The notes under the pieces were generated by a model. It was not told the DNA's origin, searched no databases, and saw only the letters and a list, made by a program, of their open reading frames with translations. A stretch of DNA of 63,995 nt, filler included, from Basidioascus undulatus (lineage: Eukaryota), in NCBI GenBank assembly GCA_000826855.1. It is 9 parts of 9 records of this genome, joined end to end, with 100 filler letters (N's around TTAATTAATTAA, not from the genome) between each part and the next. Parts side by side here need not be neighbours in the genome. Positions count along the whole stretch, not along the records: positions 1 to 25,675 come from JTLS01000208.1; 8 more parts are not named here. One strand, written 5' to 3'. The number at the start of each line of letters is the position of its first letter. Positions within the stretch are counted from its first letter, which is position 1. The translations under genes were made by a program, and so were the position numbers. Positions 4,819 through 53,933 of the stretch are shown here, piece after piece.

Positions 4819-7800
4819 TCAAGTCGACAGGTGGAGAGGATCCACTTTGTGCCACTGCACGGTGATGAGACGCGAATTCAGCGAGGCGTTCTGCCGAGGG
4901 AAGGGGGGACGACGTACCCAGTCCGCGAGGTCTCGCTCGCTGCCAGCTTGCAAAATGTAGGAATTTGAATGAGAGTACAGGGTAAAGACATTCGAACGCT
5001 GTAAAAAAGCCATGCTCGTGAGCGCGAGCCGGCAAACTGGAAATAGAAGGAGGACATACGCCCAGGAGTGCTTCCACATCCGGATTGCGCTCGAGCTTCG
5101 CAGACGCTACATTGACGACGCCGACCTCGTTGACCTCGTCCGAGCCGGTATAGATATGTAGCCAAGGTCTGAGGGGATCATCGCGTTAGCGCACAATAGC
5201 AGGCAGAGGATCGGATAGCGACTCACCGGCGGAGGACAAAGTACCTCCGAGACCACACGTCGTTGCCGGCGTCGGTTAAGTGGAAGAGGTAGCCCGCCTT
5301 GGCCTTTGTGTCGGTTCGCGGCTGGAGCTGTACTTGAGCGGAGAACATGTTGTTGCCTCCCGCGCCGGTGAAGCTAAACTGCGGCAAGTCCGGCAGCGCA
5401 AGCTCGGCTTCGGGAGGCTCGTTGATGGCGACCTAGAGACGCAGCAACGTTAGATGAGACGAGGTGCCCCGCTATCGAAATAAGGGACGGCGTACCGCTC
5501 TGCGTCCGACCATGCATGATTGCCACGCGTTGAGAGCACGGCCCGCGAGCTCCTCCTCGCTCGATTCCACGGGGCGAGCCGCGCCGGAACCCAGCGCCGC
5601 GATGAAGGCTTTGCTCGCCTGTACGTCGGCCATGAGGTGCTCCAATCGGCGTAGCTTGTCGTGATCTTGGACGAGTGACGCGCCCCTCGCTTTCCACGAC
5701 CCCAGCGCTTCTTCGCCGCGGACGTAGCGGCCGCCGGTGTCGAGCCGCCACAGCTCCTTCGCCGAGCGCGTCACCGGTGGGACGAGACGAAGAGAGAAGA
5801 GCGAGCTGGACTTGAGGAGGATCTTCGATGAGGCCAGGAAGGTCATGATTTTGGAAGGTGAGCGGGCGTCCCGGCCGTTGATCGACACCGCAGCGTCCTG
5901 GAGCGAATGTGAGCAATAGACGAAGACCCGAGGAGCGCAGACTGCTACTCACCATCGTAAAGACGGCAGGATCTTCGCAGTTGTCGATCTCGACGTGCCA
6001 CGTGACGCGCATGAGGACGCGATGTCCCGGCGCGGTAGTCCGATTGAGGAAGAGCGCCTCGTGCTGGCCCGAGTCCCACGAGCAGACGACCTTGAGCTCG
6101 CTCGAGCCGTCGGCCTTATACTCGATGGGCTGGCTGCGGGGCAGCCTGAGCTCGACGCCCTCCTTCGACGATGACTCGTGGATTCGGCCCTTCGGGTCCA
6201 GCAAGCGGACGTTCCCGAGCACCAGCTTGGATATTCTCGTCCACGGCAGTTGACGGCCCGAGTGATGGGCGAGCGTGAGGATGACGCGCCGCTGAAGACC
6301 TTGGCGAAGGAAGAAGCATCCCGGATCGAGCGCGCCTTGCGAGACGAGCTGCACGGGCTGGTACTCGCCGGTGAGGCCGAGCTCGGCGAACTGCAGCCAG
6401 CAGACGACGTCGTGCTGCTCCTCGTTGACGAGCTCGACCTCGGCACGGCGTCCGGGAGGCGCCTGCGCGAGCGGCGGCGGGGACGGCAGCGCTAGGCCGT
6501 TGGCCGGTCTTCTTCGTTCCCGAGCGGAATCGGCGTGCTCGAGGGAGACGAGGAAGTCGTGTTTGACACGCGCGTAGAATCTGCAGAGAATCTCTCAGCG
6601 GCACATCGGCAAACAGCCAGACGCAGATCAACTGTACGCACTCGATCGGAGCGTAGCCGTCGCGCAGATGGGAAGCGACCTCCGGCGTGACGACGAGGTT
6701 GAAGGACTTTCGGAAGCGCAGGTCGGACGAGCTGGCAGCGTCTAGATCGATCGCGCTGGAGGCGAACATGTCCTCAATGCAGGCTGACGGTCCGGCGAAG
6801 GCGGTCAGGCGGACTTGGGTGTGGATCGCCTGGAAGTCGCGCGACGACAGGCCGCGAACCTGGTCGATGGCGACAGAGAAGGTGAGCTTCGTCCCGACTG
6901 GAAGGGTGGAAGGGAGGGGAGAGGCGGAGCGCGTCGAGGAGGAGGAGGGGGAAAGGGGTCGAGAGGAGGACGATTCGGCGAGGGTCGGGCGAGGGGAAGC
7001 GGAACCGTTCAGTCCGCGCGACGGAGGGGTCGCGGAGGTGACCTTGATCTCGACGCGGCACGAGCCGAGCGCTTCGGAGGTGTACCGGCAGAAGATAGGG
7101 ACGTGGCATGAGGCCGAGATGCGGCGAAAGAGAGGGGCGAGAGAGACGAGAGCGGACTGCAGTTTCCTCCGCATCAGGTGCTGCTCGTCCCCCTGGAAGA
7201 ACGAAAGAGATGAAAACATACGCCGATGAAAGAGAATTCGGGAGGATCTTGCGAGTAAAAGGGCTCGAGGGTGGAGAAATGCCGAGAGACGCTCGGGCGG
7301 TCGACGAAGAGCGTGACGTTGCGCATCCGCTGCAGCTGCTGTTGCAGCCGGTCGAGCGACCAGAAGTAGATGCTCTTGTTCCGCTTGTCGATGACCTTGA
7401 CGGCGACGGTCGGGTGCGCGGAGGCTGCCGACGCAGCGTCTGAAAGCTCGCCGAACTCGCCGAGGCCGGCGATGGTCTCGATCGCGGAGACCGGATGCGA
7501 AAGCGACCCGCCCTCGTCGATGGCGAGGTTGTAGGTCACGCCGGTCTTCAGCTCGCGACTCTGCGATCGCAGGGTTAACGATGTCAGCATCGTCGCTGTA
7601 GTGGATGAACGGTGCGCGACCCACAATCACGTTCGCCTCCTTAACCAGGACGGCGTGCGACAGCGCAGCCTCCGCCATAGCTACGCGACGGAGCTTGCGC
7701 CATTTGCCGAGCGTCCATCGGATAAGGCGGAGCTCCTCCTCCGAGAACAGTACCGGCTCGAAGCTATCATTCGAGCCGCGGCGCTTGCGCTCGCGGTGGC

Positions 7801-10800
7801 GCTGGACGAGCATCAACATCTGCTTCTCGTACTGCTGAAGACGTTGCTCCATCTTCGCCTTCTCCGCCTTGACGACGACGAGATCCTCGCTGCCGGCGAG
7901 TGAGTCGAGGTTCGCCTCGTACTCGGCGCGCTTGTCCTCCAGCGCCTCGCGCACGGCGTCGGTCTCGGGGTTCGGGCTCCCGCCCGGGTCGACACTCGTA
8001 TCGTCCGTGAAAGCCTCGCCAGAAAGGTGCTTGCCACCGTTCGAGCCGCTCCACTCGCTCTCGCCATCGAAAAGGCTCATCCGGGACTCGGGCCGCGTCT
8101 TGCGGATCGTCCGGACCTTCATCAGGTCGTCGTAGAGCTTGTCCTGAGGAGCGCGCGCATTCTCAGACTTTAGCGGCGAAGTCACACAGAACCCGCGAGA
8201 TGGGCGCTTACCAAGTCCTCGTCATTCAGCTGATCCAGATTGACGTCCGACCCGTTCAGCTTCTTCAACGCGGCCTCACGCCTCGCCTGCGCCCAGTCGA
8301 AGTCGACCGCGACGCTCTCGGACGGCGAGCCCGGGCGAATGGCGGGCGAGCCTTCAGCACTACTCATGCACTCGAGCTCGGCGGCCGTCAGGCTGAGGTT
8401 GAGCTTGGACGCGCGCGCGTCCCGAGCTTTACGAACGTCCTCGGGGTGGTTGAAGCTGCGTAGTCGGGCGACCCGTCAGCATGTCGTCATGCGGCGAGTC
8501 ACATTCAGCACGAACCGGAAGATGTGGAAGTCGCCGAGAATGATCCGGTATCCAGACTTGAGCTTTTGCGACTATGGCAGCTCGGCGTATGTCAGCACGT
8601 GCGGACTGCTGCGAGCGCCGGACTATAAGGACGTACAGCACTGGGCTCTAATCGGTTTCCGTTGACCATCGTCATGGAGTCCGGCATCGCCTCGAGCGTG
8701 ACAACGCCGTCGGTGTTTGTGAAGACGCAGTGCTCCGACATGATGTTCATGCCGGACAGCCGAATATCGGACGGCTTTTCGGAGTCGACGTTGCCAACCT
8801 GCGTTCATGGTGCGAAGTAAGTAACAGACTACGATGAGTACGTGGAGTCCATAGCATACGATCGTTCGGCCGGGCTTGATCTGTTGAATCACATGGACGT
8901 CAATGACAGCTTATGAGCGTATTTTCGGCGACACTCACCTGGTAGATGAGACATTCGCTCATGAGAGGATCCTCGCTGTTGACGGGTCGAAAGTCAGTCA
9001 CGAGCGTTCAAGCTACTTTCAACGACTACAGACTTGAGGTTGACCAAATGTGGCATCTGCAGCGTCGAAAAAAGTCAGTAAACAATCAGAATATCATTAC
9101 GGACGCCCGCAAGTTGCCCACCTTTTTCGGTGTGCTCACGCCCACCCCACTCTTCTCGATCGTGATCCCCAAGTCCTCTAGCGCCTTCTCTCGCTCCTTC
9201 TGGATCTCCTGCGTCTTCTCCAATTTCTGTCCGCCTCAACCCTCGCATCAGCCCTGTCGCTACAGCACGGACCGTCAGCCTTGCGATTCCCGCATGCACC
9301 TCCTCCCACGTCTCGTTCAAGCTGCTCATGAGCTTCTCGCTCTGCTCGAGCTGGTCTTGAAGCTCCGCCTTGGTGACCGTCTTGATCTCGCCCGACTTGG
9401 TCTGGTACTGGACGATCTGCTTTTCGGGCGGCACGGTCGGGTCGTAGGTCGCCTCCGCCGATGAAGATGTCACGCGCGTCCGGAGCGCTTCGAGCTCCTC
9501 CTTCAGCTCGCGGATGAGCTTCGCGTTCGGGTCTTCGTTCACGACGGCCTTGTTCTTGATCTTCTTGGCCTGCATGTCGGAAGGAAGGTGAGCAAAGCCA
9601 TCGCCACGCAGTGTAGGGATGCGGCGGACCTGATCGGCGTAGCGCAGAGTCGATAGCGTCTCCTCGTAGTCGGCGGGAGAAATGGCAGCAATCATGGCAG
9701 TCTTGGAGTTGCCTCCGAGATTGTCTGTAGGTAGCCAGTGAGCACCGAGGTCTTCCAAGCTTCGCTGCGATCCGCTGCCGGACCTTTCAACAGCCACGTT
9801 AAGACCTACAAAGAGCTAGTCAGCATCATCCCAAGACAGCAGCATAAGTACAACGAACGCACGGAATCACGGTAAGGGATGAAGTCCTCCGCCTTCTTCT
9901 TCTTTCCCTTCGCGCCTTCCGGTGCCGCCGAGGCTGACGCCAGCGCAGCAATGACCTGTTCGCCAAGACTTTAATGAGCATTGCTGACTTTCTGCGTGGA
10001 CGAGATCAATGCTCGAACGGACCTTGCCGAGAGTCGTGAGCGACTTGTTGATGTTGGCGCCCTCCTTCAGCCGCTGGCCGGTTGCGCCGGTGGAATTGGC
10101 ACGCTCGGAACCTGCAAGATCAACGAGACTGCAGAAGTGAAAGACCGGGTGAGTGTGAAGATATTTGCCGCTGGCGGGCGTGAGGCGTACCTTATGCGCG
10201 AGACCTTCTCGCCCTCCATCCCCGTTTGCACATCATGTCGCTTTTGGGTGAGGACTGCGGTGAGGAAGGAGATAGATATCAGTTCAATCTCTTGATCATC
10301 GTGCCTTTCAGCGCGACTCCGCACCTAGCGTGAAGACACCGTGCGACCGAGAAGACGTGGCGTTCATGTTGGTCGCCGCGATCGTTCGCGCCTGTATAAT
10401 CGTCGCATCAGCTCTACCGAAGACAAAAGCATGACCAGCGAGATACAACGCACCTTGTTACCCTCGTCCATCATGTTCATCATCTCGTCGTAGCTCGAGA
10501 CGACGAGCTTGCTGAGGTCCTCGACGTACGGCCCCATCGTCGGGTGCTCGCGGACCTTGAGGTTGCTGTTATTCCGCGGGTTCAACAAGTCCTTGACCTT
10601 CTCGCTGGAAACGATAGCGCATCTCAGCACCCCAAGACATCCGAATGGAAGGCGAGGGGACGCACTTGTAGATCTCCATGTACGAGCACTCGACGGAGTA
10701 GCCGAGGTCAGGGTTTCGGTTGTTGGCGATTCGGTCGAAGAGAGCCTCGCAAGTGAGCGGGATGATGCCCTTGTCCTCTCCATATCCCATCATCGCTGCA

Positions 10801-11627
10801 GCAAACCTCCTGCATCAGCACATCCTTCGCCTGATTGCTCCGATGATCGCAGCTCCTCCTTACAGTACGACTTTCCACTGCCCGTCTGGCCGTATGCCTA
10901 TGTTCCCCCACATTCTGATGAGCTCGCTTAAGCCTCTATCTTCCAGTCACTCCTTCGCTCACGAAGATGCAACAGTGGAATCCCTCGAACGCGTGATCGA
11001 GCAGCTCGGCGCCGAGGTCCTCGTACAGCGTCTGCTGGCTCGCGTATCCAGGCTCGTCCTTCGGCCCCGCCGACCAGTACGACTTGTCGAAGGTGAAGGC
11101 CATGGTCTTCTTCTCCGTCGCCTTCGCCTGCCCCGGCTGCGCTTTCTCGGTCGAGGGCGGAGGGTCGAGGAACGTTTGTTTGCCCTGCATCCGGATCAGC
11201 GGCGTCGCGCCGCGGGCAAGCTCTGTATCGAGGGGAGGAAATATTCAGTTACTTTGTATAGACAGTGGGCTGCTGGGTAGCTGTGCAGGTGGTAAGCGTC
11301 GGAGCACTCTCGCGTGATGCCGCACTGCGAGTCCCGGCGATAGCGCGCTTTCAGCAAGAAGACGCAGCTTTGAGGATGTATTTGCTATGACACCCATCCC
11401 TCAGCAGATCCTTCGACCTTCAGTCCTTCCCAGCTAACGCCATCTGCTACTCTGCGTCCTGATGACCCTTCATCTCGGACAGGCACACGCGCTCGACCAG
11501 CTCGGCCAAGCTCGCTCCTCCGTGTGCGCGTATTGGTTGCCCCTTCACAAGCGGAAGCTAGATCCATTTACTCACCTCTGGAGTTGAGAGGCCGGCACCG
11601 GACCACGACTTTGATATTGCCCGACAT
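4819..11627 (-). CDS. kin3: Kinesin-3 (Unc104/KIF1A/Kin3-like) motor protein, multi-exon
   Basis: [13 protein letters not shown] start; P-loop [63 protein letters not shown] region ([28 protein letters not shown]); C-terminal PH domain (W-RRYFVLRR...[10 protein letters not shown]). Confidence 0.95.
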
Positions 11628-13402: not shown

Positions 13403-14532
13403 TTGGGAGGGCAATATTGCGCAAGATGGAGGGGATGACTGTGCAGGATGTGCGGTAAGGGGGTTGATGATGATGAGGGAAGGACGGAAGGAGCGAACGT
13501 GACCGCGGGCGCAAGTCATCGTTCAATCCCACATCTTGACAGTACTGCATAATCATGCTGACAAGAGAAGCCTTCCCTTCAACTGCCTATGGAACTGATA
13601 GATTTAATTACAGCAACTTGCACTCACTTTTAGCGGGAAAGCTACATGGAGGCAGAGATGTTAGACTGCATAATGCGAGGACGGCGTGAATTGCCGGCCA
13701 GCCGTCGCACCCCGGCAATGCGGAGAACTGATGGATAAAGCACAGATAATATCCCACAAGTTTTGCCTGTTAGAGAAGGAGAATAAGTCCAACAAACGCA
13801 TTGACAAGACCCGTTCAAGATCTTCCCGACGGCTGCAGTACCGGACTGATCAGGTTTGAGCACAGAAGATTGTTTCGTTGGACGGTATAGCATCTACATC
13901 TTACACAATATCCCGGGGTAAGCACAAGTTAAGCTTATTGAATTAGATATTTGTGTACTGTTCAGGTATTGCATGCGGTTCGCTACAAGTGACTAACGGC
14001 CTCCTTGTACAGGCGGCACTGTGCCGCCGGTTACGGTCTGCTGGTGCGTCTGTTTCCAACTGCATTTTGAGCAGGAACAATATGTAGCTCCAAAAGAAGG
14101 TTTCCCATACAGATCACCGCTTGATGGGCATTGCTTTCTTAGCAGGCTAAGAGCAGGTGAAATTGTTGCAGTGCTTAGCTACAACACCTGCACACTACTT
14201 CTCTCCTCTCCAATGAACTTCTTTGTGACTTAATAATATAACATAACATATGCTATTGATTTCGATGATCTGAGGCCCGCGATGATCTGATCCGTCCCAG
14301 TACCGTGTTGGAAGCTATCTCGATCAGCAGAACGGCATAATGCAGACCGAGCTGAAGAGTGCGCCGAGTGTCGAAGTACGACTTTGAGTCTTCATGCCAA
14401 TTAGGACATCCCAAATAATCACAACCACTGAATGATGACAGGCTCCGTTGCTTCCCAGGTGTGCAGGCAGTGATTGAGTCAACACTTCCTGAAGAATTGT
14501 TCCATCAAGCATTGCATTGTTGTTTCTGCCGT

Positions 14533-16523
14533 CTACTGCAGCTCCCTCCGCGACACCTCCTCCAGTACCTGCTTGTTGGACTCCCGAACTGGGTTAACGA
14601 AGTCTTCGTACGGGTTGTCATAAGGATCCTAACACGCCAATGCTCCCCCACTCAGCTGTGATGTCCTGTACCCCGGCAAGCACCGTCCGACCTACCTTGA
14701 TCCCCCACCCCCGTGCATCATTCTCGTTCATAGCGCACCAATGCCAGCCGATAACGTTCTTGCTGCCCAGGAGCGTGCGCACACTCTCGACGTAGTCCTG
14801 CACGCGCTCAGCTTGGCTCTTCAGTGAGCTCTTGCGGTTCGGGCTGAGCTCGGTAGGCTGTTGAAGGAAGCCCAGTTAGAGATTAGGCACATTATTTGAA
14901 AGGAACATGAATATAATGCAGAAATGAGTGCGAGAACCTACCGTCCAGTTCCCGAGGTCGGCATTGAGCACGGGCTTTCCGCACTCGGCTGCCCAGCGGT
15001 CCAGGTCTTGCAGCATCTTCTCGCGGCCTTCCGGAGTGGGCTGAATAAAATACATTGGTAAGTTCCTTTCTCCAGCACTGGGTTACAAAGCGAAACAGCT
15101 CACATCATTGAAATACTGCACGGACAGCACGTCCACGTACGGCTGCATGGCGCGGAGAACGGGCGCGGGGATGCCCTTGGAATATGAAAGTAGGAAAAAT
15201 CAGCAAAACTTCTTGGCCAAGGAAAGAGAGGGAACTGTTCACCTTGTTGCCGTTGAAGCGGTCTGCTCAATTGAGCGTCAGTTCGATCGTCATTAGCGCA
15301 AGGCGCGAAGACGTACCGCCCAAAATCAGGTGGTTGGAGTCCCACCGTCGGATCTCTCGGTGGCGGACCTGCGGAGTGCAATTTCAACAACTCAGGGTAT
15401 AAAGTAAGGGCAGCAATCAAAGCGCGCACCTTATAGTACTGCTCGCGACGTCGAACAGCTTCGCGTCGCGCTCCTCATCAGAGAGGCCCTCCAGCTGCGG
15501 GAAGTCCGTGCCGCTCTCTGCATACGCTCCGCCAGCACACATATCGTCTGGATTCAGGTCTGGAAGACATACGGTGCGGCATCCAGGCGGGGATGTCGAC
15601 GAAGAAGTAGCCTGCGTGCGGTGCTGATCAGCCAACAGCGATTTTCTACGGGAACCTTTGCAGTGATCAGCGAGCGTACCGAGAAGGTTGGTGCTGCTTG
15701 CGTGTTCCTCGCACAAGCTCCTAGCAAGGTAAGCGATCTACCCCCACTTCTTGCTCAGCGTTCTTCAACCCTCAACACCCACCCCGAGAACGAATCTGCT
15801 GCTCAAACTGCTTGCTAAAGGGATCTGCTCCCCAACTTCTTCAGTTCTCGCCTTCCTACTTCCTATTTTCGAGCCACATGCCACTCACCCAAAAAGTGCG
15901 GCTTCCCATTCCAGTCCTGAAAGTCGAGCGCATTAAGCTGGACGACATAGGCTTCCCGAGCGTTTTCAGCTCCTCCGGCGTCCACTGGCGGCCGTTCATC
16001 GAGTGGCTCAGATCCACGGGCGGGCCGAACCAGTCGAGCGCCTCGCCCCAGTCGCCACCGATGTAGTCCTGGGTCCATCCGAGCCTTTTCCCAATCGTAT
16101 GAAGGTTAAGTGAGCTTTCGAGGAGGAGGAAGAGGAGGAAAGGGAAGGAAGAAGGCACACGTGTTGAACCCCCAGTCCTCCATGTCCTTCCCCACCCCGC
16201 TCCGGATCCAGTTCGTGCAGTTCCCATACCGCGCCTTGTAGATGTCGTAGTTGAAGGGAAGCTTCAAGTCCGACTCGTCGAAGTGGTTGATCCCTACCTC
16301 CACGGTCTTGTCTCTCAGTTCATCTCCGGTCAATCAACCTACTTACCAACCCACCGATCGAGATGAACGGCTCTCCCGACGGGGAGACGAGGTTCCACTG
16401 CCCTGTCTTTGGGTTCTGGGCGGTGCGGAAGAAGCCCTTGACCTCTGAAGCAGCAGAAGCAGCAGCCATGGGAACGCTGAGTCCTAGAGTGAGTGTAGGG
16501 AGGGCTGGGTGGTGGAGTCGCAT
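14533..16523 (-). pseudogene. Secreted agarase-like (GH50-related) glycoside hydrolase of bacterial type, with introns and frameshifts
   Basis: Hydrophobic N-terminus (MRLHHPALPTLTLGLSVPMAAASA); motifs GFF..W.LVSP.GEPFISIGINH.DE, WGFNT.GWT, NLLGYFFVDIPAW, NHLILG..FNGNKGIP..VLRAMQPYVDVLSVQYF, GKPVLNADLGNW, IGWHWCA..EN..RGWGIKDPYDNPY; 1-nt deletions at ~15950 and ~15440. Confidence 0.75.
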
Positions 16524-17158
16524 TGTGTTGGATGAGCTTTCGGTGGGCTGGGGAGAGGGATGAAGGAGTCCCACGCTTTTATATCTGGGAAAGAGGCTAC
16601 GAGCTTCGGGTATGAAAAGTAACCACATTCTGTGGGCTGCCAAGAGGCGAATGAGTGTTAGATCGGCGCTGGGCTGACGGTAAGCTGGTAAGCGGAGTCC
16701 GGAGCGAATCGAAGCAGTGGAGGGAGCTCCGAGGGAACAACAGACGGAAACGCGAGCAACTCCGGCGCCACTGACCCGCCCGCGGCAGCGTTTATGATGT
16801 TCGAGCTTTAAGGATAGCCAGCTGACCGAGAGGAGCTAGGAGATTGTAAGGAGGGTCTTCGAGCTCACCTGTGCGAGGAGGTGGAGGTCCGAGAACGCGT
16901 TGCAGTCTGCGCTGCCGATCGCTTTCTCGAGGTTGTTATCGCTTTATCGCACATTTCTGTTATCGGTGCTGTATAATGCAAAGAAGCCCATTTCCAATCA
17001 TAGGAGAAAGCTGCACCTGAAACTGCCTCGACGCTTTAAAGCAAGCCCGGAAAGACCACACAACGGGACTTCGAGGCCTGAGAGGCTCGGTTGCGCACCC
17101 TCACAGCATGCCTCAGTCTCTCCGTATCCAGAAACGATCTATAGTCCCCTCCCCTCCA

Positions 17159-18776
17159 TCACGCAGGCGGCGCGGCCCACCCGACCCCAAAGCTCGCCAC
17201 ACTCCCCAGCCCCAAGCCAGCAGTCAACCAAAACAGCAACACGCTCGCCGCGGTATCCCTCTCCTCCGGCCTCAGCCCGCCCTCCAAATTAAACTCCGCA
17301 CTTGAGCCCGCAATCATCCCCATCGTCGACGCCCATCCATTGCTAACCCCAAAGAGCGCCAGAATGGCGAGGTATGCCGCATCGGAGTTGATCAGCGGCG
17401 GAGAGGAGGAGGAGGAGATGTTGCAGGAGAGGAAGAGGGGGATGAAGAGTGTGCGGGTCAGGGAGACTGCCAGGAGGAGACGGTGCGAGGGGCGGAAGAA
17501 TAGCGGCAGGGAGGGAAGCGAGCGCCCGAGGAGGTCGAAGATATTGAAGAGGAGGAAGTGTAGCGCTGGAAAAAGAGCCGGGGTGAGGAGGAGAGGTTGC
17601 GGGGGCGGGTGTGTCGAGCGGATGCGGGACGTGATGGGGGGGAAGACGGACTGGGTGAAGGCAGGAAGGGGATGTGAGGGGGATGCGGGGTAGGAAGAGA
17701 GGAAAGAGGGGCGCACGAGGGTGACGACAAAAACGAGCATCACCGCCAACCCATACTTCCACACCTTCCGATTCACCTCCCACACGCTGACGTCCCCGCG
17801 CTTATGTGCCGCGTCCGCATCCGCGGACGACACAGCCGCGGCGTACGCGGGGGAGCAGACGAGGCGGACAAAGAGGGCCAGCGCGCCAATCAGGAAGAGC
17901 GCGGAGAGGAGGAAGAAGGCGAGTGTGCCGGGGCCGAGGTCGGCCGGGCGGGAGGGGGAGGTGGAGTGTGCGGAGGCGAGGGACGTGATTAGTTGGAGCA
18001 GGGAGATAAGGACGGCGATGGCGCCTTGGCCTGAGCTGTGAGAGGGGAGATGGTTGAGTGGTGAAGCGGACGGGGAAAGGGATGGAAGATGCGAGGGGGA
18101 GGGACGTACAAGACAGCCTGCATCGCCCCCTGCCCAAAGAGGCTCGCGAGCCCCACACCCGCACTCTGTAGGTAGCTTCCCGCGGCCGCACACGCCGCCG
18201 TATTCACCACAAGGAAAGCGTAGTACCACGCCACCCCCACGCCGCCCCCATCCTTATCTTCCTCGCTCGGCGACCCGAGCGTCGAGAGCCCAAAGAGGAG
18301 CAGCGGGAGGGCGGTGAGGCCGAGTGCAAGGGTGACGCGTCTGCGCGGGTTGGAGTGCGGCGCGGTGGAGGTTGCGTGCAGGAGAAAGAGGAGGTTGGAA
18401 AGTGTGAATGCCGTGGAGAGTGTTGAGGCGAGGGTGCGCGAGTGGGAAGAGTGCGAGAGAACGGAGGTGAAGTATGGGATGGCAACGATTAAGGCTGTCC
18501 TGCCAAACGTGAGTGCCTCTAGCCATCTTCCGACAATTTGAAAGAAAACACACCATTCCAAGGCAGCAATATCGCGCATCCCAGTACAAAGAATGTCCAT
18601 CTCGTCAGAGCATCGATCGTGACCGGCGAAGGTGCGACAGGGACGCTCCCATCCTCATTGGCATCGGGGATCGGCGCATACTCGGCCGAGGGCGCTGGGT
18701 AGGTGTGCGGGAGTCCTGATGATCGTCGGCGCTTCCATGACCACGATGGCAGTGTCGATGCTATCAAGTCGAGCAT
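17159..18776 (-). CDS. Equilibrative nucleoside transporter (ENT/Fun26-like)
   Basis: FFVLGCAILLPWN(intron)ALIVAIPYF; GQGAIAV; FVVTL.VFPPIT; FNIFDLLGRSL; RTLFIPLFLSCN; FGVSNGWAST; many hydrophobic segments. Confidence 0.9.
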
Positions 18777-20070
18777 GGCGGTTGCGGAACAACGAGGCAG
18801 GCAGGGGGCCTGACGCGTCCTGGAGGCTGCCGCGTGGGAATCGCAGCTGACCTGCGACCTGGAATGCGAAACGCATCGAGGTGTTTCTGTAGGATATTTT
18901 ACGATTAAAAAAAGGGCCACGCTGGGTGGAAGTTGATTGTTCTCCTGAGAAGTGCATAGCATAGCCGTGGTCCACCTGGTTGTGGACTTGTCAACGACGA
19001 GGACTTGCCAGACCGCTGCATAGCTGCTATCGTCCATCAGTTCCTCAGTTGAGAGCCCCAAGTGGCTTTCTGTTCCCAACCAACGGCCCTCACAGTGCCC
19101 GTGCAGCCTGTAGGATTCAGCGATTGAAAGGGGGAATGCTCAGATGCGATGCTCTTCACCTTGCTTGGCTAGCAGTCCACAACTACAGTCTGAAATCAAC
19201 CAGCAGCGGATGCCGAATTTTTCCAAGGACTGAGCTCGGATAAAGATTTTTCTTATGGCACTGTTGTAGTCTGCGGCTTGAATGCTAACAGAACACTGCC
19301 AACCTCTGCTTCCGCCGTGCCTCACCACACCTCCAGCAACCGTTCTTGGCACTTCTTCGTCCTTGACCGATCTCCGCGGCATGGTAAGCACAACACAGCC
19401 CAACGACAGGGGGGGCGACTCCGACAATCAGGCCATTGTGCTTGTCCCGGAGCGAGACTACCGGTACCTCCATAAATCGCGGCCGCAAAGGGTTTGTGCG
19501 GCGTGTCACACTCACTTTTCCATCTGTGCCTCCTAGTCCCACTGTAAAGGTTGTACGGGGGTCTGTAGGAAGTCACTGTGACGCCCCTGGATCACATCGA
19601 GGAGGCGCAGGATCCGAGGACGAGGGTCTACATTGCAGACGCACGACACATTCGGGCGACCAGGTCGCACAGGAGTACAGGCAATGGGCACACAAGGCGA
19701 ATCTTCACCTGATTAGAACCTGATTAGCAGGCCCCCAACTACTCGCGTCCGAAGGTGTGCGTTCCTGACACTCCTACCGAGTATTAAACGCTCGCTGCGC
19801 TGTACGCTCGGTTCTTTCACCGGCAAGCAGAGCGAGGACTCAGCTTCGCACAAGACTAGCCTCCGTAGGGATTGGCTTCAGTCTTGGAACTGTACATGAG
19901 TTCAGCATCAGTTGAGCACCGGGCGAAACGAAGAGCCAAGCAGCCGACCCGCGGTCCACTTGCCGTTCTTCCGAGGGCTGAGTCGAGATGCTCCTTTCCT
20001 TCAGTCCACCACCGTCCACATCTGCGCACGCGAACGACCCCTCTCGCTTTGAAGAACTGTTGCACTAATC

Positions 20071-27277: not shown

Positions 27278-28897
27278 TCATGCCTTCTTCGCCTTCGCCT
27301 TTGCCGCGCCCGCGCCGCCGAAGACCCTGCGGCGTTGCTTGATCATGTGGGTGTACATGATGTACAGGCCTGTCCCACCGCCCCCACACTCACAACGCCG
27401 TCAGCGCCCAGCCTCTCACACTCAGTCCCACTCCGTCTCACACTCCGCGGCCGTTTACGGGCGATCGAGAAACCGGGAAGAAAGCGGGAGAGGAGGTAGA
27501 GATAGAGGAAAGAAACGCACCAGGCCACCAAATCGCGAACAGCGTGACGCGCCCGATGTCGCCCGGCCACCAGTTGACCGTGTCCGGCAGGCGGGCGGGG
27601 AGGGTCGAGAAGATGAGGAACGCCTCGGAGCCCGCGCCGGAGGGGTAGAGGACGTAGAAGGTGGTGTAGCTGTGGGGGGGGGAAGGGGCCAGCGGTCAGG
27701 TACGGGCGGGCACGGAAGGGGAGATGCAGTGGCAGGAGGGCCTTAGAGAATGGGAGGAGGGAAGACGACGAAAGTCGGGAGAGGAGAGCGAGTAAGATGG
27801 AAGCAGGGAGACGGGGCGAGGGAAGACGGTGGGAGAAGAAGGAAAAAGGTAGAAGGCAGACAAAAGCTGGGAAGAGAAGAGGGAGAGGTGGGAGAGGGAG
27901 AGGGAGAGGGAGGGGAGGGGAGGGGAGGAAGGAAGCGGCAGAGGGAAAAGGGAAGAGAGACGAACCGGAGCCAGTTGAGGAACGCGGGCTTGGACCCGAG
28001 GAGATTGCATGCGTAGAAGGAGTAGCGGATAATCTCCGTCACGGACCAGGAGATGACCATAGTCGCATAGATGGGGTTGTAGCGTGCCTGTCCATCCCTC
28101 CACACGATTAGCATCAACTCCCCCTTCCTCCGCCTCACTCTCAAGCTTGGGCTAATCACCTGCTCGAACTGCAGCCCCTGCATCTCCGTAATCCTCCAGA
28201 CCAAAAACAAGCGACTCGCAACCTGCATCGCCGTAGTCACAATCGGGCTGCGCACGAGCCCCAGCAGGACATGCACGACTTCGAGCGCAGCGGCGGTCTG
28301 GACGACGCGCACGAGCCAGCCGACGGCGGTGTAGGTCGTGCGCGCGCGGGCGAGGAGGGCGGCCGAAGAGCAGGAGGACGAGGAGAGGGAGGCGAGGTAG
28401 GCCTTGGAGGCGGTGAGCGGGGCGGCGCGGAGGGCGGCCAGGGAGGGAGCGGGCGAGCCGGAGAGGAGGTGCGTGAGCGTTAGGAGGAGGACCGCGGACC
28501 ACCCCAGGGCGGATAGGACGTTGTAGGTGACAAGGTAGAGCGTTGCGAGGGGCGTGGGGGCTGGTTGAGCGTGGGAGACCGTCAGCAGTGTCGTTCCATC
28601 AAAAGACTTCGGGTGAGCTCCAAACGCACCCTTCGTCTTCCTCAGCTCCCCACCCTTCTTAACCGCGACCTCCTTCCCCTCCTGAGATTTCACATCCTTC
28701 TGCTGTAGTGCCATTGTCTGCGGCTGTGGCTTCGGCGTCTGAGGAACGAACGCGCTCGATTGCTTCTCCCTAAACGAGTATAGCGTTGGGTCCGAGTGCG
28801 GGCCGACCTGGTGCGCGGGCGTAGGGGGCTCGGCGCGGCGGCGGTGCGGGGCGGGCGTGAAGGGGACTTGATCGGCGGGGACGGAGCGCGGGGGCAT
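27278..28897 (-). CDS. PHS1: Very-long-chain 3-hydroxyacyl-CoA dehydratase (PTPLA/Phs1)
   Basis: YLVTYN; QTAAALEVVH..LGLVRSP; MQVASRLFLVW; WSVTEIIRYSFY; WLR|YTTFYVLYP.GAGSE; YTHMIKQRRRVF; Lys-rich C-terminus. Confidence 0.93.
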
Positions 28898-29207
28898 CCG
28901 AGGAGGAGGAGGTGATGAGGGTGGACAATAGAGAAGGCAGGCGGCCGAAACGCGTCGGGCTGGCTGGAGGAGGGGAAGGAGGCGTTGGAGCGTCAAAGAA
29001 GAAGAGGCGCGTAACGCGGCTATCGCGGCTGTTTGGGACCGGTTAAAGTCCAGTGCCGCTTGCTTGTCTTCCTCGTTCACGCATCATCCACACCGCCCAC
29101 TAACACCCCCAGACTCATACTATCAAGCCCCCATACATCCCCTTCGACCGAACCTCTCCTCATCAAGCCACCCACTGACCCCCTCGAGCCTCAGCCTCTT
29201 GGTCGAT

Positions 29208-38465: not shown

Positions 38466-39116
38466 CTATTTTTGTTTTATTGTGATAACTATAGCACCTA
38501 CCATACCTAATAGTAAAATAATAGAAGTAACAATTAATCACATAGAATAACTAGTATACATAATATTACCTATACTAGCTATATGTGTTGGTTCTATTAG
38601 TGAATTATCTCAACCTTTACTACTTGCATAACCAATTTGTTGTTTTAAATCAACTATATTAAACAATTCATTATCTAATTCTACATTATATATATCAGAG
38701 TATGAATTAGATAAATAAGAAACAATACTATTTTCTGTAAAATTTAGAGGTAATACTTGTGCCATTATATAATAAAAAATAATAATAGTTAAACCAGCTA
38801 AAGGTAAGTCATTATTAGTATCATTAAATAATTCAGAAACTCTAATGTTAATTAACATTAAAATAAATAAAAATAAAATAGAAACAGCACCTACATAAAC
38901 TAATATATAAGCTAATCCTATAAAATTATATCCTACTAAAATTAATAAACCTGCAACATTAACAAACAAACCTATTAAAAATAAAACAGATACTACAGGA
39001 TTTCTACTACTTATAGTAAGTATACCTAATAAAATAGATACTAAATAAATAATATCTACAAATTCTATTCTAAATCCATTAGTAATAGAATCATTTAATA
39101 AAAATATATTATTCAT
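38466..39116 (-). CDS. nad6: NADH dehydrogenase subunit 6 (mitochondrial, code 4)
   Basis: 651-nt ORF through the TGA at 38610: NPVVSVLFLIGLF...LVYVGAVSILFLFILMLI...IGNIMYTSY...LLLGMVGAIVIT. Confidence 0.95.
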
Positions 39117-39192
39117 AATAAAAAAACTAAATCTATTAACATATTATACAAATAATAATAAATGTCTAGATAGGAATAGATAAAGATCTAAT

Positions 39193-45649: not shown

Positions 45650-47512
45650 CTTGCAATCTTCAGTTGACCGGTCAAATTGCAGTTCTGTCATTGTTCGGTT
45701 CGTAGGCCAGCGCCTGTCAAGAACATGTCTCCCGTTTTCTACGACATCGCCGACAAGGTGCGTCGGTCTTCGAGCGAACCCCTCCACGCTCCGCTGACAT
45801 TGGAATGCAGCTTGTTAGGCGCTGGGACGACCTCCTTGCTTCGGAGCCTGACGGCAAGGTCATCGACGCCGCCGAGTGGATGACCAAGGCCTCGTGGGTT
45901 GTTTCATTCTACCATTGCCTGCATAGACTGGAAACTGAGAGCATTGCTGCGGTCCAGCTGGATGTCATCGGCCGCGCCGGATTTGGGTGGGAGTTCGAGT
46001 CCCTTGATGGAAAGCAAGGCCACTTGGCGAAACTCATGGAACTGGTACATCCTCACAACTCCAAATGTTTTCCCGCCTGCGCCGTCTCAGATGTCCCCCT
46101 TTCCACCAGGTCAACGAAGGCGAGATCGGTTTCGGTCCCTTCCTCGCTTTCCTCGGAGCGCGGGCGTTCCCCTGGCTCACCGCGCTGCCGATCGAGGCTG
46201 TCGAGCTGCGCTGCAGAAGGCTGTTCCCCGTGCGCTCAAGCCCATCCCGGAGACTATGATTGCTGCTGCACGCGCCGGCACACACGAGGAGGTCAGAAGG
46301 GGAAGGACGTGTTGAGCGTGCTTGATGAGTGGTCTTGCCGGGTTTAAAGTGAAGACGAGGAAGCTCTACTGACTTCGGTACTTCCCTTTTCAGTCAAAGA
46401 AAGCGACCGGTCCGAAGCCGGAAATGGACGAGACAAGCTGGTATTATCGATTTGCAGCATCCCCTGAACGTCCACCGTGCGCTGAACAGCCTTCTGCAGA
46501 TTGGCAACATCACCACTGTCACGCCGGACACGACACGTTCGTCTTCTCTTCCATACCCCCTAACCCTAAACGCCTTTATATTACAAACCATCTCATCATG
46601 CCTTCAAACATTTCAGTTCCGCCGGCGTCCTCACCTGGCTCCTGCACCACCTCGCGCACGCTCCCTAGGGTCCAAAAGCGCCTGCGCGAGGAGCTGCTCG
46701 CCTCTGGACCCGACATGCCTGCCGTCGACGAGCTGGGCTCCGCGACGCGCTTCCCTTACCTCGAAGCGGTGTTGAGGGAGGCGCTCAGGCTTCACCCGCC
46801 GACGCCGCAGTTCTTCCGGACGATGCTAAGGTGCGGGGAGGAAGTAGGAAGACGTAAGAGTTTTTGGATGCTAAAGGAGAATGGAAATATAACAGGACAC
46901 CTCGGTTCCTCTGACGAAGCCGATCCGCATGCCTGGCGGGAAGCTCGTGGATCAGGTCGTCGTGCCGGCCGGTGTGGTTCGTTATCTTCCCCTGCTTTAC
47001 ATAGTAGGCCCTAGATATTACTGAACCTTGATTTCAGCCCATCCAGTATCAATGACCACCGTCTAAGTACGTGCCCCACCTTCCTCTCCAGCGCTTTGCA
47101 GACTGTTGAACGTCCTCACCTCCCGTTCCAGCACCGCCACCTCCCTCTGGGGCCCGAACGGAAACGAGTTCGACCCCTAGCGGTGGATCAAGCCTGAGGG
47201 TATTCCTGAGGCCGCTCGGGGTACTTCTGGCGTGTGGGGCGGATCGACAACTTTAGGGGACAGGTGCTGGCACTGCGAAAGTCTTTCTGCAGCGACTCCG
47301 TCTTTTCTTGGCTGGTCGATTTTATTCCCTTCGTGAAGACTGGCTACCGCTTCGGTAAGTCCCTGCTCGATTTTACGTCGTTAAGGAGGCAAAGCCGCTA
47401 AAGAATTGAACTCTCCAGCTCTTCTGGAACTCCGCGTCCTGATCGTCGCCATCGTCCGGAACTTCAGCCTGTCGCCGCCCAGGGACTAAGGAGTCGACCT
47501 TGAGTTCCTGTA
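45650..47512 (+). pseudogene. Cytochrome P450, disrupted
   Basis: LDVIGRAGFG; GKDVLSVL; VQKRLREEL; FPYLEAVLREALRLHPP (ExxR); WGPNGNEFDP*RW (PERW with TAG at 47178); no intact FxxGxxxC heme motif; several frameshifts. Confidence 0.85.
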
Positions 47513-50004: not shown

Positions 50005-53000
50005 CGGTCGTCGCCTCGTCAGACGTGAAGACGATCTCGCGGACGTTAAGCTCCTCGCGGACGTAGCCCTCGAGCGAGCGAACGTCGTCGAGGAACTCAG
50101 CTTCGGGGTGGAAGATAATGAGCTCCTTGAGCGGCGTCTACAGAAGGTGGAACCGCAAATCAGCGTCTGCGACCGACACGCTACACCAGTAATCAACCGC
50201 AACGCACCTTGAGCGCGACCTTCTGCTTTTCGCGGACGAAGCGGCCGAGCTCGATGACGGCCTGCATGCGCTTGACCTGGCGCTGGATGACCGGGTCAAA
50301 GTACTCGGTGCGGACCTCCGGGAAGGGGAGGAAGTGGACGGAGCGGTTGTCCTCCTCGGAGGGCGGGAGGTGCGGGCGCAGGCTTTGGTAGAGGTTCTCG
50401 GTGAGGAAGGGGGTGAAGGAGGACTGCGAGGACAAGGCAGCTTTCGCGTTAGCCAAAAGCTGAGAGAAGCGGGCAGGGGCGTGAGCGGCGAAGGACGGAC
50501 CATGGTGCGGCAGAGGGTGAAGAGCGTCTCGAAGAGCGTGTTGAGCGCCGCGACGGTGTCCTCTGTGCCGCGCTCGCCCTTCAGGCGTTTGCGGTTGAAG
50601 CGGATGTACCAGTTCGTGAGCTCGTCGATGAGGTTGAGTAGGCGGGGGATGACGGTGTAGAGGCGGTAAGCTGCGTTCAACCACATAACCGTCAGTACGT
50701 CTGCGCGCCAACGTACCGCACCACGCAGGCGCTGGGGGAGGGGCGGCGGGGGGTGAGGATGACGGGGAAAAACGCACCAGCCATCTCCTCTCGCACGAGC
50801 TTGATCAAGCTCTGGCAGCGGGCGAGGACCCACCGGTCCATGACGTTGTCCGACTTTGGCGCAGCGGGGTCATATTTGAACTCGATGCCGTGCTCCTTCT
50901 TGAGGAGCGCGACCTGGCCGAGGAAAAAGCGGAACGAGTTGAGCCAGGGGAGAAGCACGCGCGAGATGACCTCCTTGACGCCCTCCTCCCGGAAGCGCAG
51001 GTTCTCGCCGCGCACGATAGGCGAGTTGACGAGGAACATGCTGCGAGTGCGGGTACAATTACCATCAGCATTGCAATTGCTCAGCGCACGTGGGTGGGGA
51101 TGGGACACGTACCGAAGCGCGTCCGCACCGTACTGCTCCATGATGATGCCCGGGTCGGGGTAGTTCTTGAGGCTCTTGCTCATCTTCTTGCCGTCGCTGC
51201 ACCCCTCTCACGCACATCAGCCCCGGAACCAGCACCCAACATAACCTTCCGACACGCACGCAGCTAGGACAAGACCGGTGGTGATGAGGTTCTTCCACGG
51301 GGCCTTTCCGAAGAGGTGGGTCGCGAGGACGAGGAGAGTGTAGAACCATCCGCGGGTCTGGTCGATGCCCTCGGAGACAAAGTCCGCCGGGAACGACTTC
51401 CCGAACTGCTCCTTGTTCTCGAAGGGGTAGTGCGCCTGGGCGTACGGCATCCTGTCCCGCATTCAACATTAGCCACGCACACGTGGGAACGGAGGAGGTC
51501 GGGGAAGGGAGGAGGGGAAGAGGGAAAAAGGGAAGACGCACGACCCCGACTCGAACCAGCAGTCAAACACCTCCTCCACGCGGCGGAGCGTGCCCTTGCC
51601 CTTCTGGGACGGGATCGTGATGTGGTCGATGCGGTCGCGGTGGAGGTCCGTGATGCCCGTCACGCCCGACAGGCGCTCGAGCTCCTCGATCGAGCCGACC
51701 GCGACGACCTGTCCCGCCGCCCCATCTCATCTCATCAGCCGCGCACATGCGAGGAGGGGGGGTGGCGAGGTGGGGGTATGAGGGGAGAAGCCGCACCTCC
51801 TCGTAGTCGTCGCTGACCCAGAGCGGGATCGGCGTGCCCCAGTAGCGGTTCCGGGAGATGTTCCAGTCGCGCGCGTTCTGGAGCCAGTTGCCGAAGCGGC
51901 CCTCGCCGACGTTGGCAGGGACCCTGAGCGTCCGCCCGTCCTCTTTATCAGTACCTTGCTCGCTCTTTGCCACAAGTGGAAGGGCTGGGAAGGGAGAGGA
52001 GGTGGAAGGGGGAGGAGCGAAGGACGCACCAGAGCGTCTCGGCGTTATTCTTGACGAGGTCCCCGACGATGTCGCCAACCTTGACGAACCAGACGGGGAT
52101 GGCCTTGTAGATGAGGGGGGTGCCGGAGCTGTTTGCGACGTCACATCAGCCTGCGCGCAGGTGAGAGGGAAGACGGGGGACGCGACGCACCGCCAGCAGA
52201 AGGGGTACTGATGCTGGAGCGTAGACTGGACGATGAGCCTCCCCCGGGCCTTCAAGGTCTTCTGGATGTCCTTGTCCGCCGTCTGTCTCGTCCCCCACAC
52301 CCCAATCAGCCCCTCCTCCTCCTCCCCTCTTCCCCTGCCGCCCCAAGCCAGCCCAAAGACAAACCTTCACATGCACGCCCTTCCAATCCGGCACGTCGTC
52401 GGTGAAGCGCCCGGACTCGTCGACGGGGCACGGCGGCATCTCGTCGGGGCGGATGACCTTGTTGGCGATCGCGATGCGGTGGTCGTCGTCGCCGAAGGCC
52501 GGGGCTTGGTGGACGATGCCCGTGCCCGAGTCCGAGGTGACGTACGTGTCGACGAGGACTTTGAAGGCCGTGTCTTTGAACTGTTGGCCCAGCGAGATGG
52601 GCATCAGCAGCATGCTGCCGTGAAGAGGGAAATGGAGAAGGAAGGGCGGGGAAGACGAAGGGAAACGGAAAGGAAGTAGCGCACATTCTCATAGAAAAAG
52701 TTGAAGATCGGCTCGTACTTCCACCCCTCCATCTCCTTGCCCTTCAGCGTCTGCAAGACCTTGTACTTGGCCTTCTTCGGGTCCTTGTACAGCGTCCCGA
52801 GGAGCTTCTCGTGGAGGATAAAGTTGATGCCGCGCTCCTCGTCGTGGATCTTGACATACGTGAACTCGGGGTGCACGCAGAGCGCGAGGTTCGAGGGCAG
52901 CGTCCAGGGCGTTGTCGTCCAGGCAAGGAGGGACGTGGTGGGGTCAGAGAGGAGAGGGAAGGAGACGGTCACTGGGGGAGGGGAGGGTAAGAGCGCAGAA

Positions 53001-53933
53001 GGGAGGGGGGAACGGATGACGGGGTGGGGAAGAGTGAAGACGGAAGAGGTGAAGAGGAGACGCACCGGCCGGGTCGGACACATCCTTGTACGCCTGGCCC
53101 GCCTCAAAGTTGGACAGCGGCGTCGTGCACGCGGTCGAGTACGGCATGACCCTCAGCCCTCGATAAACCAAGCCCTTCTTGAACAGCTCCCCAAAGACCC
53201 ACCACACGCTCTCCATGAACGGCGTGTTGAGCGTCTTGTAATCGTCATCAAAGTCGATCCAGCGGCCCATGCGCTCGACGGTCTTGCGCCAGTCAGACGA
53301 GTAGCGCATGACGATCGCGCGGCACTCGGCATTGTACGCTGCAATCCCCATCTTGAGCACGTCCTCCTTGCCCGAGATGCCTAGCTTCTTGTCGATCTCG
53401 TGCTCGACGGGCAGACCGTGCGTGTCCCACCCGAAGCGACGAGGGACGTGGAAGCCTTGCGCGCAGGCATGGCGGGTCACGATGTCCTTGGAGAGGGGCG
53501 GTGTGTCAGTGTTCTCCTCTACCCTGCCCGTACTTTCTACCATCCCTCCCGGCCCCTCCCCCACCCCTTTAACTCGCCCCTCCCGCTCACCTTGACCGTC
53601 CCCGCAAGCAGATGCCCATAATGCGGCAAACCCGTAGCGAACGGCGGTCCGTCGTAAAACGAGAAGAGGGGCTTGCCCTCGGAGAGCTGGAGCTGAGTCT
53701 TGAACGCGTCGATCTCGCGCCAGAACTCGATCACTTTCTTCTCCTGTCCTCCCATTCACCCCACCCACATCAGCCCCCGTCCTTCCCCTGCCCTATGTCT
53801 GTGAGCCGCAGACCTCAGCGGGGAAGTTAAAAGGCGCCGAGACTGCGTGGGCGGCGTGAGTGCAGGGAAGACGAAGACGAAGGGAGAAGACCGAGCGCGA
53901 GGGGGACGGACTGTCGTGTGCGGGGAACGCCAT
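50005..53933 (-). CDS. ILS1: Cytoplasmic isoleucyl-tRNA synthetase, 3' end truncated
   Basis: [14 protein letters not shown] (HIGH); [64 protein letters not shown]. Confidence 0.97.

Follow-up and report, generated by a model that had tools for sequence, protein, structure and literature searches.

The window analysed here, a stretch of 63,995 nucleotides joined from records of the Basidioascus undulatus assembly GCA_000826855.1, carries on its minus strand a gene for a relative of bacterial proteins that NCBI names 'agarase'. We consider it probable that this is an old, fully intronised and recently inactivated transferred gene of fungal type, descended from a bacterial family that resembles glycoside hydrolase family 50 (GH50). 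A bacterial gene for a single-domain GH50-like barrel of about 380 residues would have passed to a fungus, most likely from an actinobacterium. After transfer it would have acquired a promoter and a leader of 26 residues, maybe a signal peptide, as well as 12 short introns, as dense as those of the host, and a long period of purifying selection would have followed. Three single-base frame lesions would then have ended production of the conserved protein, leaving a relic that would still be weakly transcribed and mis-spliced.

Gene structure and family membership

Read from ATG to TAG, the gene comprises 13 exons with 1226 nt of exon sequence (Table 1) and 12 introns of 45-84 nt, all of which (12/12) follow the GT-AG rule and have fungal-type donors and CTRAY-like branch sites. 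An initial annotation of this DNA had listed motif blocks of an agarase-like protein on the minus strand, colinear once short introns are removed; all blocks were found between 14533 and 16523, and removal of the 12 introns does give a protein collinear with the bacterial homologues. When the exons are joined by script, with X at two breaks, the spliced protein has 408 residues and requires three single-base corrections. The proposed likeness of the introns to those of flanking fungal genes was also borne out, as they are spliceosomal and their density is comparable to that of the adjoining kinesin motor region. An introner-like origin of the 12 introns was rejected, because they resemble neither each other nor any other window sequence and only for one (intron 4, z -3.2) is the fold more stable than in shuffled versions. 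The leader encoded by the first 26 codons is moderately hydrophobic (a hand calculation gave a mean Kyte-Doolittle value of ~1.3 for residues 7-25), is not present in bacterial or Penicillium-type homologues and, judged from its composition, is a plausible candidate signal peptide.

Searched singly against Pfam, NCBIfam and the PDB, the exon pieces gave no useful match, and a word-indexed search of exon 12 against longer proteins returned none either, short pieces being too weak there for the outcome to inform on relatives. In an exhaustive phmmer search, by which alone the family was reached, the 43-residue piece from exon 2 gave 19 matches at E<=1e-3 among 1.84 billion representatives (best full-span identity 60%), and it reached full-length proteins such as P0008 (385 aa) that are collinear with the whole window gene. 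Two top-ranked matches outside the family, P0001 (4672 aa) and P0004 (596 aa), match a query part of about 20 residues 8-9 times each and look, from their sequences, like repeat proteins and unrelated matches. For P0008, 1876 of 2575 candidates are relatives at E<=1e-3. Among the 120 matches listed for it, named relatives are called either 'agarase' or 'hypothetical', and the sources include Halalkalibacter, Bacillus, Paenibacillus athensensis, Bacillus smithii, Cryobacterium, Modestobacter, Rhizobium and several metagenome-assembled genomes (MAGs). A single fungal protein is among these 120, PFLUO_LOCUS5731 of Penicillium psychrofluorescens (P0106), encoded on a 4.46-Mb contig. In a scan of prokaryotes with one genome per species, 329 of 354 pattern matches encode relatives. 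Identity to P0105, the nearest relative of the window protein, is 45-81% for relatives in Actinomycetota, Bacillota and Alphaproteobacteria and 34-38% for those in Planctomycetota, Bacteroidota, Verrucomicrobiota, Acidobacteriota and other groups, and in the ESM Atlas, Bacteria make up 96-100% of the nearest clusters. Family members are single-domain proteins of 363-404 residues (~380), and six of them searched against Pfam and NCBIfam matched no family model.

The window protein matches 136 family proteins, and comparison with family members gives 52-58% identity and E of about 1e-160 over residues 27-405, which is far beyond chance. Identity is 58% to P0105 (over 365 residues, E 3.7e-160), 56% to P0043 (E 6.8e-161) and 54% to the Penicillium protein P0106, which ranks 50th of the 136. 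All 31 invariant columns and 68 of the 79 near-invariant columns of a 56-sequence family alignment (A1) are retained. Full-length collinearity and the invariant residues place the window protein in the ~380-residue family named 'agarase' by NCBI, the relation first proposed for it. Named bacterial members, such as WP_375489884.1 from an uncultured Jatrophihabitans sp. (P0119 cluster) and proteins of Halalkalibacter, Paenibacillus athensensis, Cryobacterium and Modestobacter, are collinear with it over their full length at 50-58% identity and have the same invariant residues. However, they have neither introns nor a leader, whereas the window copy is intronised, leader-bearing and frame-broken.

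Fold and active-site residues

The catalytic barrel of the family is homologous to that of solved GH50 enzymes. An AlphaFold2 model of P0105, built with alignment A1, has a predicted local distance difference test score (pLDDT) of 95.5 and a predicted template modelling score (pTM) of 0.93 and forms an eight-stranded (β/α)8 barrel. Its top Foldseek matches are all GH50 enzymes with the same barrel (E 4e-19 to 1.5e-15; TMq ~0.72), namely AgWH50C (5z6p), Aga50D of Saccharophagus degradans (4bq2-4bq5), BpGH50 (5t3b) and PfGH50B (6xj9); clan-A barrels of GH2 and GH5 come next, at E 1e-9 to 1e-7. A search of the PDB with the profile of alignment A1 using hmmsearch found Aga50D at 2.6e-27, collinear from a hairpin before strand 1 to the C-terminus, and phmmer of P0105 gave a GH50 match at 6.6e-9. 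These comparisons, made with the family rather than with the window protein itself, agree with the GH50-related TIM barrel that had been suggested. Besides the N-terminal hairpin motif, Aga50D and the family have in common the His-Trp of strand 8 and an invariant Arg of the family that aligns with Aga50D Arg752.

According to the accessible text of one study (PMC11079163), Aga50D has Glu695 as its nucleophile and Glu534 as its proton donor, with Asn533, Arg752 and Glu757 also in the active site. These residues were mapped by index count on the profile alignment (chain index plus 43). At the position of Glu695 the family has an invariant Asp (D282 of P0105, encoded in exon 11 of the window gene) instead of the Glu nucleophile, and the loop that bears Glu757 is missing. 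Asn533-Glu534 apparently corresponds to Asp-Ile, an assignment by ungapped extension, the printed alignment ending three residues before the pair; in the P0105 model, Asp169 is the final residue of strand 4. Further, alignment of the family with the 750-residue Aga50D chain is limited to about residues 253-745. Its members are half the size of solved GH50 enzymes (~375-408 versus ~750 residues) and lack their N-terminal β-sandwich domain, which resembles a carbohydrate-binding module (CBM). As judged from profile and model, the family is GH50-like in fold and descent, yet would stand outside GH50 by its nucleophile residue.

A GH50-type barrel need not mean agarase activity, as GH50 also includes the β-1,3-glucanases PaBglu50A and Fsa16295Glu, described in the accessible text of the same study (PMC11079163). 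By that description, to which the comparison is confined, both enzymes keep the two conserved Glu residues, whereas the window family is without the Glu nucleophile. Agarase activity is unsupported for the family because it has no GH50 N-terminal domain and has Asp in place of the nucleophile Glu. No characterised member of the ~380-residue family was found in the literature.

Bacterial gene context and likely function

Genes within ~4.5-5 kb were surveyed at 28 bacterial loci, in batches of 10 and 18. Components of a monosaccharide-type ATP-binding cassette (ABC) importer (Peripla_BP_4, double ABC_tran or BPD_transp_2) are encoded at 16 of these loci, a xylose-isomerase-like TIM-barrel protein at 12, a Gfo/Idh/MocA oxidoreductase at 10 and an Abhydrolase_1 protein at 7, while seven loci have none of the four neighbour types (L007, L015, L032, L055, L056, L061 and L067). 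At L009, L013, L020, L021, L027, L028 and others, a CUT2-type sugar ABC importer is found together with one or two Gfo/Idh/MocA proteins, one or two xylose-isomerase-like proteins and an alpha/beta hydrolase. In the Jatrophihabitans MAG that holds the closest named bacterial relative (L015, 4187-6268), the family gene lies ~1.7 kb downstream of a GH35/GH42-like beta-galactosidase gene, a context unlike the ABC/Gfo clusters.

By analogy, the bacterial gene set resembles pathways of 3-keto-sugar or anhydrosugar oxidation and elimination, for example the levoglucosan lgd cluster. The accessible text of the paper on the lgd cluster of B. smithii (PMC7676230) does not list the family gene, and a literature search found no paper that contains both 'levoglucosan' and 'agarase'; the suggested link to levoglucosan is one of gene context only. 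Bacterial family proteins begin directly at the conserved hairpin, without a leader peptide, and by the same analogy the family may consist of cytoplasmic enzymes whose substrate is a small sugar derivative brought in by import. The ancestral protein was probably glycosidase-like, with a small soluble sugar derivative as its substrate, rather than an agarase. The initial annotation had also proposed possible action on algal or other galactans, which is not supported, given the missing GH50 N-terminal domain, the Asp at the nucleophile position and bacterial members that are leaderless and encoded beside small-sugar importers and oxidoreductases.

Phylogeny and transfer

In a quick search under LG+C20+F+G4 with posterior mean site frequencies (PMSF; 103 rows, L053 and L058 having been dropped as too short), the window protein groups with a clade of 12 Penicillium-type rows with a Shimodaira-Hasegawa-like approximate likelihood ratio test (SH-aLRT) support of 95, the Penicillium-type clade itself having 99. 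The sister group (support 87) consists of Jatrophihabitans, Actinomycetospora, Pseudonocardia, Geodermatophilus and Modestobacter sequences and the unnamed P0105, P0108 and P0119. A second, finished tree of 63 chosen rows under LG+F+G4, from which the long rows L029, L035, L040 and L064, partial rows and near-duplicates were left out, gives 98.9/98 for the clade of window and Penicillium-type proteins and 84.4/88 for the split that adds the actinobacterial group, Geodermatophilaceae included. From a more careful C20 search, which was unfinished, the saved best tree and an ultrafast bootstrap (UFBoot) snapshot of 1000 trees were used; the best tree has the same arrangement as the other two, and the snapshot contains the fungal clade in 924 trees and the fungi together with the actinobacterial group in 963. 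Across the analyses, the actinobacterial sister group is moderately supported (84-96).

The window gene is nested within bacterial diversity and integrated in a eukaryotic chromosome with spliceosomal introns; its distribution in fungi is patchy, provisionally so, as judged from two lists of 120 matches. The bacterium-to-fungus transfer first proposed for this gene is supported by the maximum-likelihood trees, in which it stands beside actinobacterial sequences in a mostly bacterial family with one named fungal relative among the matches listed. The donor was likely an actinobacterium, and we infer both the direction of the transfer and its age. Because the bacterial relatives are without introns, all 12 introns must have been gained.

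The Penicillium-type set comprises P0106, the only named fungal relative in the two lists, together with P0135, P0139-P0147 and P0153 and the locus L079. Of 15 unnamed open reading frames examined from it (ORFs; the 12 clade rows and cluster members), 11 end right after the same Gly-Trp-Gly. L079 (10001-11175), which is 92% identical to P0106 and lies on a 656-kb contig filed among metagenome records, has its sole intron exactly at this Gly-Trp-Gly, a 53-nt GTAAGT...TAG intron in phase 2 of a Gly codon, and ORF callers would therefore truncate these genes. In the trees, the Penicillium-type proteins are sister to the window protein; their genes, members of the same family from a fungal background, have their intron in a similar 3' region, but carry one intron versus 12, have no leader and have an intact frame. 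No description of the ~380-residue family in fungi was found in the literature, supplements of the cited papers not being covered.

It is possible, although we think it somewhat doubtful, that the window and Penicillium-type genes were acquired separately from related bacterial donors, or reached fungi once and then moved from one fungus to another. The two groups have no intron position in common, the Penicillium-type intron lying 7 nt upstream of window intron 12, their intron numbers differ as noted above, and no common neighbouring gene was found between L079 and the window within 10 kb. Identity between the window and Penicillium-type proteins (54-59%) is not above that between the window protein and bacteria (56-58%). 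A grouping of Penicillium-type and actinobacterial rows that excludes the window row was likewise not rejected by an approximately unbiased (AU) test (p 0.70), although this is not a clean test, since the constrained tree was set against the poorer tree of the quick search. Two further points count against the reading favoured here: the end branch of the window protein is long (0.84 versus a median of 0.15-0.18) and the trees were rooted by assumption on a distant bacterial subfamily. Against separate transfers stands the single clade that both fungal groups form in all three analyses, and the best likelihood of the unfinished C20 search (-23658.1), with the window protein beside the Penicillium-type clade, is 9.4 units better than that of the constrained tree (-23667.5).

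Frame lesions, transcription and probable loss of function

Alignment with homologues shows where the three single-base corrections are required to restore the conserved frame (lesions 1-3, Table 1). Lesions 1 and 2 cancel, leaving 35 codons (15951-15783) read outside the conserved frame; these span strand 3 and helix 3 of the barrel, with ten near-invariant columns among them. After lesion 3, uncorrected reading of the exons runs into a premature stop. All three lesions sit in or beside short runs of the same base. They were compared with contigs, not raw reads, of two runs from different studies and years (2014 and 2025), X1 (depth 18.8, 24,453 records) and X2 (depth 50.6, 16,194 records). 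Over 14400-16700, both show 0 differing letters and 0 gaps, and all three lesions are present in both. The frame is disrupted relative to conserved homologues, and the disruptions are real in the DNA, as expected of a pseudogene. Most likely this copy is a relic whose inactivation is recent and which would have lost its function. The initial annotation, which called for a frame-corrected protein, did not point out that this copy is probably dead, as the three frame breaks in two read sets indicate.

Run X3, from the same sample as X2 and of a type only guessed as 'DNA?', contains one 151-nt contig (depth 2.2) that runs from the end of exon 8 via exon 9 to part of exon 10, with introns 8 and 9 spliced out exactly as predicted. 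A third splice joins 15141 to 15016, differs from the homology-based intron 10 (15103-15041) and deletes 61 nt of exon, placing this isoform out of frame. The three exon joints argue for spliced RNA. Run X3 covers 4 of 30 bins and speaks to introns 8 and 9 only, not to expression level. The locus is transcribed at least weakly, and the sole isoform seen is mis-spliced.

Several points count against inactivation. The assembly may itself derive from X1 or X2, leaving at most one independent confirmation of the lesions; both may come from the same strain, in which case the lesions could be strain-specific; and an intact paralogue may exist elsewhere in the genome. The conserved frame is without stop codons and retains every invariant residue, lesions 1 and 2 compensate each other, and a weak alternative donor, GTCGCG at 15449, would bypass lesion 3 and yield an open frame of 401 codons, so that some product is possible. 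It is conceivable, but in our view improbable, that the gene is alive, the breaks being consensus errors shared by the assemblies or being tolerated or bypassed, and that a secreted enzyme of ~400 residues is made. The short same-base runs at the lesions and the transcription of the locus would also fit such a gene. However, the letters are identical and without gaps in two read sets that differ in depth, year and study, the compensating pair still recodes 35 residues and displaces strand 3 and helix 3 with their near-invariant columns, GTCGCG is a poor donor compared with the twelve others, and the one contig seen to be spliced has lost the frame.

Genomic surroundings

That the gene sits on a nuclear contig of fungal type, as assumed from the start, is supported by the kinesin-3 and ENT nucleoside-transporter genes on either side of it; a PTPLA gene also flanks it (Table 1). 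One contig of 21,577 nt in each of X1 and X2 spans approximately positions 47-21623 of the window (by arithmetic from record coordinates). Contamination is ruled out by this link of the gene to kinesin-3 on one side and ENT on the other. We give hardly any credence to an ancestrally eukaryotic family inherited vertically in fungi, or to bacterial contamination or an assembly chimera. It is true that an unrooted tree alone gives no direction of transfer and that chimeras may be present in the assembly, given the foreign-looking mitochondrial block described below. However, two of the 12 spliceosomal introns of the gene were confirmed, and single contigs in two read sets tie it to its neighbours. 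Relatives occur in at least 329 prokaryote species genomes of many phyla versus one named fungal protein among the matches listed, and the fungal sequences are far more similar to one actinobacterial group than the bacterial subfamilies are among themselves (35-38%).

Table 1 Features of the agarase-like gene and of other genes in the window.
Feature	Position	Strand	Remarks
Whole gene	14533..16523	-	ATG at 16523, TAG ends at 14533
TATAAAA box	16577..16583	-	54-60 nt 5' of first ATG; read from sequence; putative promoter element
N-terminal leader	16446..16523	-	26 codons; candidate signal peptide; small residues at -3/-1
Exon 1	16355..16523	-	169 nt
Exon 2	16161..16293	-	133 nt; source of the 43-residue query by which the family was found
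Exon 3	15889..16084	-	196 nt; holds lesion 1
Exon 4	15783..15824	-	42 nt; lesion 2 at its donor end
Exon 5	15680..15737	-	58 nt
Exon 6	15573..15611	-	39 nt; strand-4 motif, Asp where GH50 has Asn-Glu
Exon 7	15430..15517	-	88 nt; holds lesion 3
Exon 8	15317..15368	-	52 nt; junction to exon 9 seen in X3 contig
Exon 9	15243..15262	-	20 nt; both junctions seen in X3 contig
Exon 10	15104..15175	-	72 nt; set by homology
Exon 11	14942..15040	-	99 nt; invariant Asp at GH50 nucleophile position
Exon 12	14696..14857	-	162 nt
Exon 13	14533..14628	-	96 nt; ends in TAG stop
Lesion 1	15950..15951	-	two-base remnant CC of a Pro codon kept before Tyr in homologues; one base missing
Lesion 2	15783..15783	-	one extra G in G run at exon 4/intron 4 donor
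Lesion 3	15439..15440	-	two-base remnant AG of an Arg codon kept before Tyr-Tyr; one base missing
Premature TGA	15326..15328	-	codon 256; reached from lesion 3 when exons are read uncorrected
Skip in X3 contig	15017..15140	-	124 nt, GT..AG; donor GTACGT at 15140 in exon 10, AG in exon 11
Kinesin-3 gene	5374-11250	-	motor, Kinesin_assoc, FHA and DUF3694 domains
ENT nucleoside transporter	17162-19139	-	immediately upstream of the agarase-like gene
PTPLA	27746-29083	-	
P450 fragment	46373-47011	+	
Class I aminoacyl-tRNA synthetase	50141-53792	-	
Na/Ca exchanger domain	59695-60375	-	

The kinesin-3 motor domain (327 profile positions) is cut into at least 7 ORF pieces over ~1.4 kb, while ORFs of 701 and 406 codons make up the tail, so that intron density varies strongly within one gene. 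The ENT, PTPLA, P450, aminoacyl-tRNA synthetase and Na/Ca exchanger genes have no evident link to the transferred gene. Between 35300 and 40400, the window contains an AT-rich block (GC content 19-39% versus 55-67% in the flanks) of mitochondrial-type DNA within a contig that looks nuclear. Its minus strand carries a nad6 ORF (38613-39143; PF00499, 7.9e-23) and 10 tRNA genes, one of which has the anticodon UCA. The block represents mitochondrial DNA inserted into the nuclear genome, or else an assembly chimera; its mitochondrial type rules out repeat-induced point mutation (RIP) as the cause of its AT-richness.

Discussion

Transfers of carbohydrate-enzyme genes from bacteria to fungi are well known, and the type of event described here is not new. 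The family itself is large (one search gave 1876 proteins) and is not covered by a Pfam model; its nucleophile position differs from that of GH50, and it is probably misnamed. The B. undulatus locus should not be annotated as a working secreted agarase.

The comparison between fungal lineages is a clean one for intron gain, with 12 gained introns in 1.2 kb in the window gene versus one in the Penicillium-type relatives. The copy further illustrates how a transfer may end, domesticated, then broken and still transcribed. More tentatively, and with considerable doubt, we propose that these proteins constitute an unrecognised glycosidase-like family with an Asp nucleophile, which in the bacterial cytoplasm would act on small imported sugar derivatives in the manner of 3-keto-sugar or anhydrosugar pathways, together with Gfo/Idh/MocA and xylose-isomerase-like enzymes. 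Fungi would have captured it from actinobacteria, and in the lineage of B. undulatus it would have gained a secretion leader and its introns before dying. If this is true, the gene would be a dated record of intron gain.

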